DNA of 63,883 nucleotides from Gekko japonicus. Its lineage: Eukaryota. The notes under the pieces are model-generated. The model worked only from the letters and a program-made list of their open reading frames with translations, made no database searches and had not been told where the DNA came from. The stretch spans positions 1,347,701-1,411,583 of the forward strand of contig NW_015163100.1 in NCBI RefSeq assembly GCF_001447785.1, read 5' to 3'. Position numbers and translations under genes: made by a program. Of the stretch, positions 38,201 through 42,354 are shown piece by piece. The first letter of the stretch is position 1; each line of letters starts with the position of its first letter.

Positions 38201-38861
38201 CTCCAGGTGCCACCTAGAGGTTGGTAACCCTACTCTGTAGTACAGGGCCTGCTCCGCAAGGGTGTTGTGCCGAGCAGACAGTGAAGCCCCACAATAGGGC
38301 CCAGTGGGGGAGCCTTCGGCAGAGAAGGACCGGAGGAGCCCAGGCAGGCAGGCAGGCAGGCAGGCAGGCAGGCAGGCAGGCAGGTTCCTTCCTGGATCCT
38401 GGCAAAGGCCGCCTCCACCCCCCACCCTACCCACCCGCGGAGCCCTGCTTCCCCGAGCGGGCCTGGGTGTCGGTCGGTCCCCTCCTCACCGGCGAAGCTG
38501 TTGGAGACGTCGAGGATCTTCTTCTGCCAGGAGCCCAGGAGGACGCCCACCACGCGCTTCTGGTTGCCCACCTTGCCGATCCTGCCCGCAAAGACAACGA
38601 GGCCCGGCTGAAAGGGAGGGGGGGAGGCAAGCCGGGGCCGGCCCCCAACGCCGCCTCACGACGGCCCGGCCGGGTAGGCCAGGCCCTCCTCCCTTCCCCT
38701 CCCCTCCCCCACGCGGGGGGGGGCCTTGCGTGACTCAGCCGGGCGGAGAGCGGGGCGGGTGCGCGCGCAGCCCCCGGCGGGCCTCACCGGTTGAAGTGGT
38801 CGACGACGCTGAGCAGCACCAGCGGGTGCACCACCACCCGCTCCACGGCCAGCTCCGGCAT
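34857..38861 (-). CDS. PSMD7: PSMD7, 26S proteasome non-ATPase regulatory subunit 7 (Rpn8/Mov34); 7 exons, 957 nt, 318 aa
   Basis: Exons 38861-38788, 38581-38490, 37937-37845, 37614-37517, 37214-37134, 36402-36311 and 35283-34857 are all GT-AG and join in frame: [25 protein letters not shown]...[11 protein letters not shown]...KEEKKEKK*. Confidence 0.98.
35369..35968 (-). mobile_element. Two tandem CR1-type 3' ends in PSMD7 intron 6
   Basis: Tail ATAAGAACATAAGAGAA at ~35370 and ~35610, each followed by a homologous body; related fragment at 21605-21675 (+). Confidence 0.75.
36311..36402 (-). CDS. PSMD7: PSMD7 exon 6 ([31 protein letters not shown])
   Basis: 92 nt; AAG acceptor, GTAAA donor. 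Confidence 0.97.
37134..37214 (-). CDS. PSMD7: PSMD7 exon 5 ([27 protein letters not shown])
   Basis: 81 nt; canonical splice sites. Confidence 0.97.
37517..37614 (-). CDS. PSMD7: PSMD7 exon 4 ([33 protein letters not shown])
   Basis: 98 nt; canonical splice sites. Confidence 0.97.
37845..37937 (-). CDS. PSMD7: PSMD7 exon 3 ([31 protein letters not shown])
   Basis: 93 nt; canonical splice sites. Confidence 0.97.
38070..38232. mobile_element. hAT-like MITE (TIR AGGGTTGCCA...TGGTAACCCTA) in PSMD7 intron 2
   Basis: TIRs; degenerate 8-bp TSD CTCGGTAT / CTCTGTAG. Confidence 0.7.
38490..38581 (-). CDS. PSMD7: PSMD7 exon 2 ([30 protein letters not shown])
   Basis: 92 nt; canonical splice sites. 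Confidence 0.97.
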
Positions 38862-39500
38862 CGCGGCGGCGGCAGCTCCGGCCCGGCTCCCACCACCCCG
38901 TCGCTCCCGGCGTGCACTGCGGCCGAGTCACTCCCGGCGCCGCCAGGGCAGGAAAAGGAAGTGAGGGGGAGGGGCCGGGCGCTGGCGCCATCTTGGGCGG
39001 GCACCGCCGGCGCCGCGGCCATCTTGGGAAGGGTCCCCGCTCCTGACGCGCCGGCTCTCTCTTCCGCTCTCCGGCCGGAAGTGCGTCGGCGTTGGGCCCC
39101 GGCCGCCATTTTATCTTGAGGGCGAGGGGGGAGGCCCTGTCGATGCCCTCCTGACGCAGGGTGGCCCCGTGAACGAATCTCTCACCCCCATAAAAGAAAA
39201 AACATAACCAAGACCCCGCCCCGCGGTGCACGGCATTGCTGAGGCCCGCCCGCCCCCTGTTTTGGGGCCTTCCTCTTGCCCCTGTGGGCTTCCGGAAAGG
39301 CCAGAGTGACGCCATCTTGACTCCCCAGCGTCGCTGTGCTTCCCACGTGGCCGCGGAGGCGAGCCCAGAGCCCGCGAAAGGGGGAAGGGGCCTCCCGGGG
39401 TGTCCCTCAGGCGCTCCTCCAGCGCGGACATCACGCGCCAGAGGTGGGATTTGCCCCGAGGAGTCCCAAGGCCGCCACCACCCCAAGGCTCTCGCGTGTG
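38700..39500 (-). promoter_or_regulatory. PSMD7 CpG-island promoter: YY1 sites (GCCATCTTG at 38987, 39018, 39311; GCCGCCATTTT at 39102), ETS site CCGGAAGTG at 39075, ARE motifs at 38730 and 38922
   Basis: High CpG density around exon 1; the motifs are read directly from the sequence. Confidence 0.8.
38788..38861 (-). CDS. PSMD7: PSMD7 exon 1 ([25 protein letters not shown])
   Basis: ATG in gccgcgATG context; donor GTGAG. Confidence 0.97.
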
Positions 39501-39837
39501 ATGTCTCCCTGGAAACCAGCTCAAAGTCCTGAAGCAGGTTTTTAAAGCCGCTGACTGTGCAAGGAGTCCGGTGAAGGATGATTAATTAACCCGCTCTGTC
39601 ACACCCCGCTCAGCGTCTTGCATTTGCTTTATACATTTCCCCTATTCCACCTCTGAGAATGCCAGTGTGCGAAGGAGGGAGGCATCCCAAGGCTCCTGTG
39701 GAATTCTCAACTGGCTTGCAAAATTCCTGAACACAGGGGTCCTTTGGTAGAAAAAGAGGTGCAGGAGCTCATTAGGATAACTCATTTGCATATGCCACAC
39801 ACACCCTGACGTCACCGGAAGTGTGTCGGAAGGCAAC

Positions 39838-40774
39838 TCAAGCAAGCTGTTTTAATTACTTGAATGGGTCTGCTTTAGTAGTTTTCAGTTACCTACATGT
39901 GTTTGTTTTCAGTTACCTATATGTGTTTGCCTTAAAACCTTGACATATAATAACCAATGCTTTGCTATTGATCAATAATGCTATGTAACTGATATATCAG
40001 CAAAGAAATACATAGTTTGCTTTCCAGCAAGTAAGAAAAACAAGTGACCACATAAGGCTTTGCTAGATAAAGGAAGCGCTTGACCATATATGGGGATTGA
40101 TAGGCAATTCATTAAAAAGCTAACTCTGCAAAAGAATAATTGTCAAAGTATAATTGCCTGGCTGCTGTTGTTAAATGGAAACTCAAAACTGTGTACAGGA
40201 AACGTATAGCTCAACCACAAGCAAAGCTTAACACCTGCAAGAGACAAGAGACGCTTGTGGTCGCCAAAAATAAGACGCTTCGTTGCAAAGTTCATGGTGT
40301 TTTTTTTTTCTTTATCAGCTAGACATGTATTTCCTGTTTTTGCTTTCTGTAGCCTTGCAAAGAAAAGTATTTAACCCAATGCCCCCCACCCCTCCGCGCG
40401 CAGCCCGTTTTGGAGGACCTCCTGTTCGTTCCTCTGGCTGTCGCCTGCGCGCATAATAAAGATCTTAACTGACTCTCTTTGGTGTCCAGCCGTTCTCCTT
40501 CAGAATTCTTGCTTCATTTCCTGGTGCATTTGGCCGGAGGGGGGAGAAGCGAGAGTCCTTAAGGGGACTGGGCTTTGGAGCCCCCTTGAGCCACGACCGC
40601 GGAGTCAAGTCCGCCGGAGCGTGACTTACTTTTGGCAGGGCCCATTTCCTACTTTGGAAAGCCGATCGTTCCTCACCTCTTGTGGGCTATTCTCTGCTGT
40701 CGCTTGCTCACGGCGAACCTGGACTGAAGGAGACTCAAGCCAGGGATTCCGGAATCTTCAGGAAAGGTCAGTAT
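39838..40774 (+). mobile_element. Truncated endogenous retrovirus / LTR element: LTR 39838-40516, PBS 40522-40539 (tRNA-Gly-like), leader with splice donor AG|GTCAGT at ~40767
   Basis: Terminal inverted repeat TCAAGCAAG...CTTGCTTCA, TATA-like GTATTTAA at ~40368 and AATAAA at 40455. TGGTGCATTTGGCCGGAG resembles the complement of the tRNA-Gly(GCC) 3' end (TGGTGCATTGGCCGGGAA). Confidence 0.8.
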
Positions 40775-42354
40775 CTACTCTGTAGTACAGGGCCTGCTCT
40801 GCAAGGGTGTTGTGCCGAGCAGACAGTGAGGCCCCACAATAGGGCCCAGTGGGGGAGCCTTCGGCAGAGAAGGACCGGAGGAGCCCAGGCAGGCAGGTAG
40901 GTTCCTTCCTGGATCCTGGCAAAGGCCGCCTCCACCCCCCACCCTACCCACCCGCGGAGCCCTGCTTCCCCGAGCGGGCCTGGGTGTCGGTCGGTCCCCT
41001 CCTCACCGGCGAAGCTGTTGGAGACGTCGAGGATCTTCTTCTGCCAGGAGCCCAGGAGGACGCCCACCACGCGCTTCTGGTTGCCCACCTTGCCGATCCT
41101 GCCCGCAAAGACAACGAGGCCCGGCTGAAAGGGAGGGGGGGAGGCAAGCCGGGGCCGGCCCCCAACGCCGCCTCACGACGGCCCGGCCGGGTAGGCCAGG
41201 CCCTCCTCCCTTCCCCTCCCCTCCCCCACGCGGGGGGGGGCCTTGCGTGACTCAGCCGGGCGGAGAGCGGGGCGGGTGCGCGCGCAGCCCCCGGCGGGCC
41301 TCACCGGTTGAAGTGGTCGACGACGCTGAGCAGCACCAGCGGGTGCACCACCACCCGCTCCACGGCCAGCTCCGGCATCGCGGCGGCGGCAGCTCCGGCC
41401 CGGCTCCCACCACCCCGTCGCTCCCGGCGTGCACTGCGGCCGAGTCACTCCCGGCGCCGCCAGGGCAGGAAAAGGAAGTGAGGGGGAGGGGCCGGGCGCT
41501 GGCGCCATCTTGGGCGGGCACCGCCGGCGCCGCGGCCATCTTGGGAAGGGTCCCCGCTCCTGACGCGCCGGCTCTCTCTTCCGCTCTCCGGCCGGAAGTG
41601 CGTCGGCGTTGGGCCCCGGCCGCCATTTTATCTTGAGGGCGAGGGGGGAGGCCCTGTCGATGCCCTCCTGACGCAGGGTGGCCCCGTGAACGAATCTCTC
41701 ACCCCCATAAAAGAAAAAACATAACCAAGACCCCGCCCCGCGGTGCACGGCATTGCTGAGGCCCGCCCGCCCCCTGTTTTGGGGCCTTCCTCTTGCCCCT
41801 GTGGGCTTCCGGAAAGGCCAGAGTGACGCCATCTTGACTCCCCAGCGTCGCTGTGCTTCCCACGTGGCCGCGGAGGCGAGCCCAGAGCCCGCGAAAGGGG
41901 GAAGGGGCCTCCCGGGGTGTCCCTCAGGCGCTCCTCCAGCGCGGACATCACGCGCCAGAGGTGGGATTTGCCCCGAGGAGTCCCAAGGCCGCCACCACCC
42001 CAAGGCTCTCGCGTGTGATGTCTCCCTGGAAACCAGCTCAAAGTCCTGAAGCAGGTTTTTAAAGCCGCTGACTGTGCAAGGAGTCCGGTGAAGGATGATT
42101 AATTAACCCGCTCTGTCACACCCCGCTCAGCGTCTTGCATTTGCTTTATACATTTCCCCTATTCCACCTCTGAGAATGCCAGTGTGCGAAGGAGGGAGGC
42201 ATCCCAAGGCTCCTGTGGAATTCTCAACTGGCTTGCAAAATTCCTGAACACAGGGGTCCTTTGGTAGAAAAAGAGGTGCAGGAGCTCATTAGGATAACTC
42301 ATTTGCATATGCCACACACACCCTGACGTCACCGGAAGTGTGTCGGAAGGCAAC
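40775..42354 (-). repeat. PSMD7: Second copy of PSMD7 intron 2 (part), exon 2 (41007-41098), exon 1 (41305-41378) and promoter; direct repeat of 38230-39837
   Basis: Offset 2517 bp over most of its length, with identical ORF-track translations. The differences I could see are confined to the first ~150 bp: two SNPs and the (GCAG)n length. Confidence 0.95.

Follow-up and report, generated by a model that had tools for sequence, protein, structure and literature searches.

A probable joining of two haplotypes around a proviral insertion upstream of PSMD7 in the genome assembly of Gekko japonicus

In the RefSeq assembly of the gecko Gekko japonicus (GCF_001447785.1), a truncated endogenous retrovirus (ERV) stands between two direct copies, about 1.6 kb each, of the promoter and first two exons of the proteasome gene PSMD7. 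We analysed the 63,883-nt stretch of contig NW_015163100.1 that holds this arrangement (forward strand, 1,347,701 to 1,411,583; hereafter the window, to which all positions refer). The duplication is probably absent from the animal itself. On balance, we consider that it arose when an insertion haplotype and an empty haplotype were joined by the assembler, and the underlying feature is likely an ordinary insertion polymorphism. Taking all kinds of assembly artefact together, such an origin appears quite likely, while a real aberrant integration or inter-homolog repair is a rather unlikely source of the arrangement.

Divergence between the two copies

Copy A (38230-39837, 1,608 bp) comprises part of PSMD7 intron 2, exon 2, exon 1, the CpG-island promoter and the initial 104 bp of a short repeat of very high copy number. 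Copy B (40775-42354, 1,580 bp) repeats it with 98.07% aligned identity, and no third copy of the unit was found within the window. In both copies, exons 1 and 2 are intact and the CpG island is present; the 92-nt exon 2 lies on the minus strand at 38490-38581 in A and at 41007-41098 in B, and the 74-nt coding part of exon 1 on the minus strand at 38788-38861 in A and at 41305-41378 in B. The copies are separated by 937 bp free of N (39838-40774), consisting of a long terminal repeat (LTR), a site resembling a tRNA primer-binding site (PBS) and a retroviral leader. A preliminary description of this DNA had pointed out the recurrence of A as B, the start of the LTR exactly where A ends, and the continuation of B into what looks like uninserted flank. 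All three hold: the first base of the LTR directly follows A, and the high-copy repeat (42251-42680, right end approximate), which is split by the LTR after A, is intact after B. The same description counted two single-nucleotide differences and a length difference in a (GCAG)n array; the latter stood, while the substitutions proved to be three.

All three substitutions are transitions (38255 C/40800 T, 38285 A/40830 G and 38381 C/40898 T), and the array, written here as (CAGG)n, is 28 nt shorter in copy B than in copy A. These four differences are confined to the first 152 bp of A, with the B-specific letters sitting 26, 56, 111 and 124 nt from the junction of leader and copy B (40774/40775), and the other 1,456 bp are identical. 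If three substitutions were evenly spread over 1,608 bp, all would fall within the first 152 bp with a P of 8e-4. Two DNA runs of the species from one study (X1 and X2, compared as Logan contigs) differ from the window over the listed pieces of copy B by 1.3% (15 of 1,162 letters) and 1.0% (10 of 1,051 letters), respectively. At 1% divergence, finding three differences within 152 bp is unremarkable (P 0.2-0.3), but finding none over 1,456 bp would be exceptional (P 5e-7 or less), so the simplest reading of the pattern would be two alleles in the arm combined with one collapsed core. The preliminary description had held that the differences fit an allelic or recent origin, and the analysis agrees that they look allelic.

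Two other accounts of the pattern were rejected. As for pure ageing of the copies since insertion, the arm is too divergent (P 0.02-0.10 for the differences in 152 bp) and the core, unless collapsed, too identical (P 5e-3 to 2e-5 for 1,456 bp). As for replication errors alone, three transitions in 124 bp contrast with the roughly 2 point mutations per 15 kb given for replicative junctions in the accessible part of PMC4352052.

The left boundary of the duplicated unit is also informative. The unit begins at the last 2 bases of a short element (38071-38231) with 10-bp terminal inverted repeats (TIRs; 9 of 10 positions match), which we take to be similar to miniature inverted-repeat transposable elements (MITEs); a second copy of this element was not found in the window. 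A start of copy B within 2 nt of a TIR end would fit the stop expected of a short-read extension. The window contains eight N-gaps of 20-632 nt, none of them beyond 27578, which would mark a short-read scaffold, and the join at 40774/40775 itself is without N. The repeat is confirmed as assembled sequence, not as DNA of the animal.

The junction in read data and gap-free joins elsewhere in the window

The read comparison covered positions 39780-43400, excluding the left arm of copy A and the TIR element, and included X1, X2, a run from a relative (X18) and an RNA run (X21); the matching rows were listed in part, and word depth serves as a rough guide only, not as a copy number. Reads spanning the leader-to-B junction had been proposed as a test in the preliminary description. 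Run on these other animals, the test found the junction in none of the contigs listed for the two conspecific DNA runs (0/2) or for the relative, which does not settle the state of the source animal. At 40830, X1 and X2 have one contig each, which aligns from exactly 40775 on, carries the letter of copy A and stops where the short array of copy B ends; the letter of copy B was seen in neither run among the contigs listed. Word depth over copy B in X1 (31-81 per record) is not twice that of the flank record (63.7). The record of X18 stops matching at 40776 with 82 letters left over. It carries the letter of copy B at 40830, where it is about 84% alike, and at 40857 it agrees with X1 and X2 against both A and B. 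Polarising the arms of A and B by X18 was dropped, because sites 40830 and 40857 conflict and one of them is homoplastic on any tree. Depth in X21 (3% of the run read) was too low for judging splicing from copy B.

The same runs attest to the ERV family itself. Among the contigs listed for X1 and X2, those matching the LTR are 99-100% alike and have a word depth of 489-749, as against about 70-77 for single-copy sequence; LTR and PBS contigs taken together range from 377 to 749. In X2, the depth is 651 for the LTR, 377 for PBS and leader, and 77 for single copy, and the resulting leader-to-LTR ratio of 0.58 fits, as a rough estimate, some five proviruses with two LTRs each. In X18, the family is nearly absent (depth 0-6, 78% of the run read). 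Three letters of the family copy in the window differ from all listed X2 contigs over 813 bp (0.37%). Because of the near-identical multi-copy contigs, the near absence from X18 and this low divergence, we conclude that the family is real, young, of low copy number and recently active in this species. Near the end of the leader (40671-40717), five sites within its last 104 bp differ from some or all family contigs and from the RNA reads, and the LTR is nearly identical to them; either the differences cluster to the left as well as to the right of the doubtful junction, or the family has a second subfamily.

Further evidence on the reliability of joins without N comes from WWP2, which the window carries on the plus strand (with mir-140 in an intron), PSMD7 being on the minus strand. 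The chicken WWP2 HECT exon of 44 aa (residues 458-501) scores 27 of 240 by six-frame local alignment in the N-free interval 21497-23576, where 30 shuffles give a mean of 28.5 and a maximum of 36; its best score in the whole window is 44. Four neighbouring WWP2 exons, used as positive controls, score 213-301, near their maximum. This procedure with controls was chosen because tblastn missed a WWP2 exon that is present (residues 281-342). The motif of the 44-aa exon occurs in 76 of the 90 reference proteins that extend far enough. To judge from these alignments, the exon is absent from the interval and from the whole window, and the interval is likely mis-assembled. It contains a gap-free 204-bp tandem repeat (22461-22874, plus strand), all 4 mismatches of which are located in its first 16 nt, at the junction side as in copies A and B. 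As this repeat coincides with the missing exon only 16 kb from the PSMD7 duplication, the assembly very likely makes gap-free false tandem joins. Two other gap-free, near-exact direct repeats in GC-rich sequence were observed at 1-275 (135 bp at 100%) and at 1780-2060 (99 bp at 95%), and these are possibly assembly joins as well.

A model can be proposed on these grounds. The sequenced animal likely had a provirus in the heterozygous state, 977 bp upstream of the PSMD7 start codon. The assembler likely followed the insertion haplotype for 937 bp into the repeated retroviral sequence and then abutted the empty haplotype. In that case, the 152-bp arms of A and B would represent alleles, and the identical 1,456 bp would be a collapsed consensus that was placed twice. 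The right-hand extension may have stopped at the TIR element ending at 38231, while the left-hand extension would have run out in the multi-copy leader. In a variant of the model, circularisation of a 2,545-bp fragment would have produced a chimeric mate-pair read and with it the join, given that one read length from the junction covers all B-specific letters. On the true insertion allele, one would expect a longer provirus flanked by a short target-site duplication of the ordinary kind. False haplotype duplications are counted among the most common assembly errors in the available text of 10.1101/2020.05.22.110833. With the pattern of differences, the X1 and X2 reads and the WWP2 control, the stitching of two haplotypes of a polymorphic insertion, which the preliminary description had listed among three options, has become the leading one.

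Several observations weigh against it. The junction has neither N nor visible overlap, while false duplications, in the same available text (10.1101/2020.05.22.110833), are usually separated by a gap. The reads are from other animals, the best runs hold 0.60 of the window words, and X1 and X2 may represent another population, in which a private real event would be equally absent. Logan contigs drop short and rare records and therefore show presence, not absence. The core of a real duplication could also collapse in a short-read assembly. WWP2 provides evidence of error in the assembly but not of error at this particular join, and the exon loss is itself, as far as the sequence goes, one seen in the assembly. 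The A-to-LTR junction is in no listed row of any run, the rows being dominated by the high-copy repeat; nor do the listed rows include the first LTR letters of other family copies, a continuation of the leader or a junction of a 3' LTR with flank. Natural proviruses of like layout exist, going by the accessible parts of PMC5488345 and PMC4422153. Finally, X18 shares the letter of copy B at 40830, with the low similarity and the conflict at 40857 described above.

Alternative explanations and their consequences

Two kinds of real event were weighed. In an inter-homolog rearrangement, a proviral end broken at integration or later would have been joined to, or primed on, the empty homolog at 38230, so that the left arm of B would be another allele. 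This would account for the allele-like transitions and for the precise N-free join, and X18 has the letter of B at 40830, as an old allele would. Moreover, host repair of a free viral 3' end can copy several templates in turn before recombining, according to the available part of PMC5041404. The identical core, however, demands extra steps (a return to the original chromatid, gene conversion or a collapse during assembly), and the start at the TIR end is unaccounted for unless a hairpin or a transposase cut drew the break there. X18 is only about 84% alike at that site and agrees with X1 and X2 at 40857, and the junction is in neither conspecific DNA run among the contigs listed. We regard such a rearrangement as unlikely.

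The other real event, a one-ended integration, was the headline of the preliminary description. Integrase would have attached the left end of the LTR at 39837/39838; the right end, which was truncated, would have primed on the same chromatid 1.6 kb upstream, yielding a giant target-site duplication with copying errors beside the junction. The left LTR-host junction is precise in the assembly, and the B-specific letters are located where synthesis would start. The supposedly good LTR end, however, starts without what we take to be the canonical dinucleotide, and the host copies, which this mechanism requires to be initially identical, show three transitions and an indel within the 152-bp arm. 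The layout resembles that of experimental aberrant proviruses, which have one normal end, another that is often truncated, and duplications of hundreds to thousands of bp (PMC5041404, in part), and natural 3'-truncated HERV-K proviruses with duplications of 111 and 450 bp are on record (PMC5488345 and PMC4422153, in part). Against these precedents stand the transitions in 124 bp, far above the rate for replicative junctions (PMC4352052, in part), and the ageing probabilities given above, which fail the arm and, unless it was collapsed, the core. Of the three preliminary options, the giant target-site duplication has the least support: copying from the same chromatid should yield two sequences that are identical at first, and in so young an element there has been too little time for three differences to build up within 152 bp when the other 1,456 bp have none. 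We consider it very unlikely.

A different kind of artefact would place the LTR at another locus altogether: the assembler slipped via the high-copy repeat at the end of A into an ERV-bearing copy of that repeat elsewhere and re-entered at B. The repeat has a word depth of 1e5-6e6, with hundreds of loose ends at 42251 and 42663 in the read runs, and the A-to-LTR junction lies inside it, where shared k-mers are likely. The absence of that junction from the listed rows points the same way, but carries little weight, since the rows are swamped by the repeat. Two points argue against a slip: mates in unique sequence normally anchor gap filling, and the repeat shows no difference between its A and B parts until the very base where the LTR begins. 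Among all the explanations weighed, this one has the lowest probability. Retroviral gene capture was rejected because there is no 3' LTR after B.

What follows depends on which explanation holds. It is doubtful that a germline one-ended integration took place with repair copying 1.6 kb of the CpG-island promoter and exons 1-2 of PSMD7, an essential gene, possibly from the other homolog. If it did, a known kind of event would be extended to a larger size, with the longest ERV target-site duplication of natural origin in the published cases compared (111-450 bp in human, in the parts of those sources available), and PSMD7 would have a second promoter. The repair route, otherwise known mainly from cell culture, would then have a natural example in the germline, and retroviruses a way to duplicate a promoter. 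Exon 2 of B spliced to exon 2 of A is predicted to shift the frame (92 nt), so that the first stop comes in exon 3, at codon 116 of 117; spliced straight to exon 3, it is predicted to give a normal mRNA. Exon 3 is present in a single copy (37845-37937, minus strand); exons 1-3 read in frame, with a Pfam match to the JAB domain. If, by contrast, the duplication is an artefact, the gap-free joins of this assembly are untrustworthy, as the WWP2 exon lost nearby illustrates, and what remains is modest: a recently active ERV family and, some 1 kb upstream of PSMD7, an insertion that is likely polymorphic.

The retroviral insert, other features and known systems

The LTR is 679 bp long (39838-40516, plus strand) and has a TATA-like site at 40368, an AATAAA at 40455 and an imperfect terminal inverted repeat, in which 8 of the 9 first letters match the inverted 3' end (chance about 1e-4). 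Its right end coincides with the exact end of an X2 family contig and bears what we presume to be the canonical terminal dinucleotide; the left end (39838-39839) does not, and the remaining terminal repeat matches. The deviating letters may be peculiar to this copy, shared by the family or an error. In the RNA run X21, a pile of about 144 reads was observed at 40340-40391, near the TATA-like site, with many molecule ends at 40379-40391. The PBS-like site (40522-40537, plus strand) begins 5 nt past the LTR and matches 15 of 16 letters of tRNA-Gly(GCC) with one bulge, the 3' probe sequence being that given in the available part of 10.1101/2020.01.21.913749. An X2 contig spanning this site is identical to the window over 40492-40670. 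The leader (237 bp, 40538-40774, plus strand) is multi-copy in X1 and X2 and ends 8 nt past a motif that we take to be similar to a splice donor. The fold of R, U5 and leader has a z of -2.8, and 1 of 100 shuffles was equally good.

A second LTR was not found in the window, and no gag, pol or env family was matched by Pfam in the 74 open reading frames (ORFs) scanned, that is, 71 of the 91 ORFs of at least 75 aa ending beyond 39000 and three PSMD7 ORFs, the 20 left-out ORFs lying in copies A and B. Scan and window search thus uphold the preliminary account of the insert as LTR, PBS and leader only, without gag/pol or another LTR. Exact patterns for the LTR start, for the LTR end with the PBS and for the leader-to-B junction had no matches in viral or metagenome contigs, and the translated leader and junction-spanning frame had no homologue in a search limited to near lengths. 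A tentative class I (gamma-like) label is suggested by the PBS.

As for the rest of the window, the mir-140 precursor lies at 20994-21072 in the WWP2 intron (Rfam, 104.9 bits). A fragment of a reverse transcriptase (Pfam RVT_2, E 3e-21) at 50825-51106 is unrelated to the studied LTR. Recent inverted repeat pairs of 90-97%, resembling short or long interspersed elements (SINEs or LINEs), occur at 33205-33430, 34050-34404, 48872-49226 and 63504-63733, MITE-like copies are many, and the head of a SINE may account for a tRNA-like match at 56149-56220. At 43168-43400, depth is zero in all four runs compared (in X2, from 42926 on), which may reflect a private insertion or a filter effect.

Among known elements, the insert can be set beside Gly-primed class I (gamma-like) ERVs such as VL30 and PERV, which we take to have a PBS complementary to tRNA-Gly(GCC) and a U3-R-U5-PBS-leader layout. 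It departs from these in the bulge of its PBS, in the 5-nt spacer and in its lack of coding sequence.

The arrangement as a whole invites comparison with three systems. One-ended integrations of human immunodeficiency virus 1 (HIV-1) and avian sarcoma and leukosis virus (ASLV), as described in the accessible part of PMC5041404, also have one precise LTR end, a truncated other end and a long host duplication; those cases are experimental and somatic, and the PSMD7 copies differ like alleles. Closer in nature are HERV-K(HML-2) loci with long target-site duplications (PMC5488345 and PMC4422153, in the parts available): 111 bp at 6p25.2 (LTR and truncated internal part), 450 bp at 21q21.1 (3'-truncated provirus) and 250 bp at 7p21.2 (solo LTR). 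They share with the PSMD7 locus a germline element, truncation on the 3' side and long flanking direct repeats. Those loci, however, belong to a finished reference, and polymerase chain reaction was used, according to the same parts, to check 6p25.2 and 7p21.2, while the PSMD7 locus is known from an assembly. Its duplication would be 3.5 times the longest of these HERV-K cases and would copy a gene promoter. No report of this locus or of a natural kilobase-size ERV duplication was found in the literature covered, to which subscription journals contributed little, and further long cases may appear in the target-site duplication table and supplements of PMC5488345.

Because its copies differ where identity is required, and because its junction is seen in the assembly only, we do not class the PSMD7 case with aberrant integrations. 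Its resemblance to false heterotype and homotype duplications, as characterised in the available text of 10.1101/2020.05.22.110833, consists in the tandem placement of two alleles whose divergent parts are retained and whose near-identical parts are collapsed. Such duplications arise at contig boundaries and heterozygous sites, again in the available text (10.1101/2020.05.22.110833). The PSMD7 join differs from those cases, which are usually gapped, in being free of N and in having an ERV fragment between the copies.

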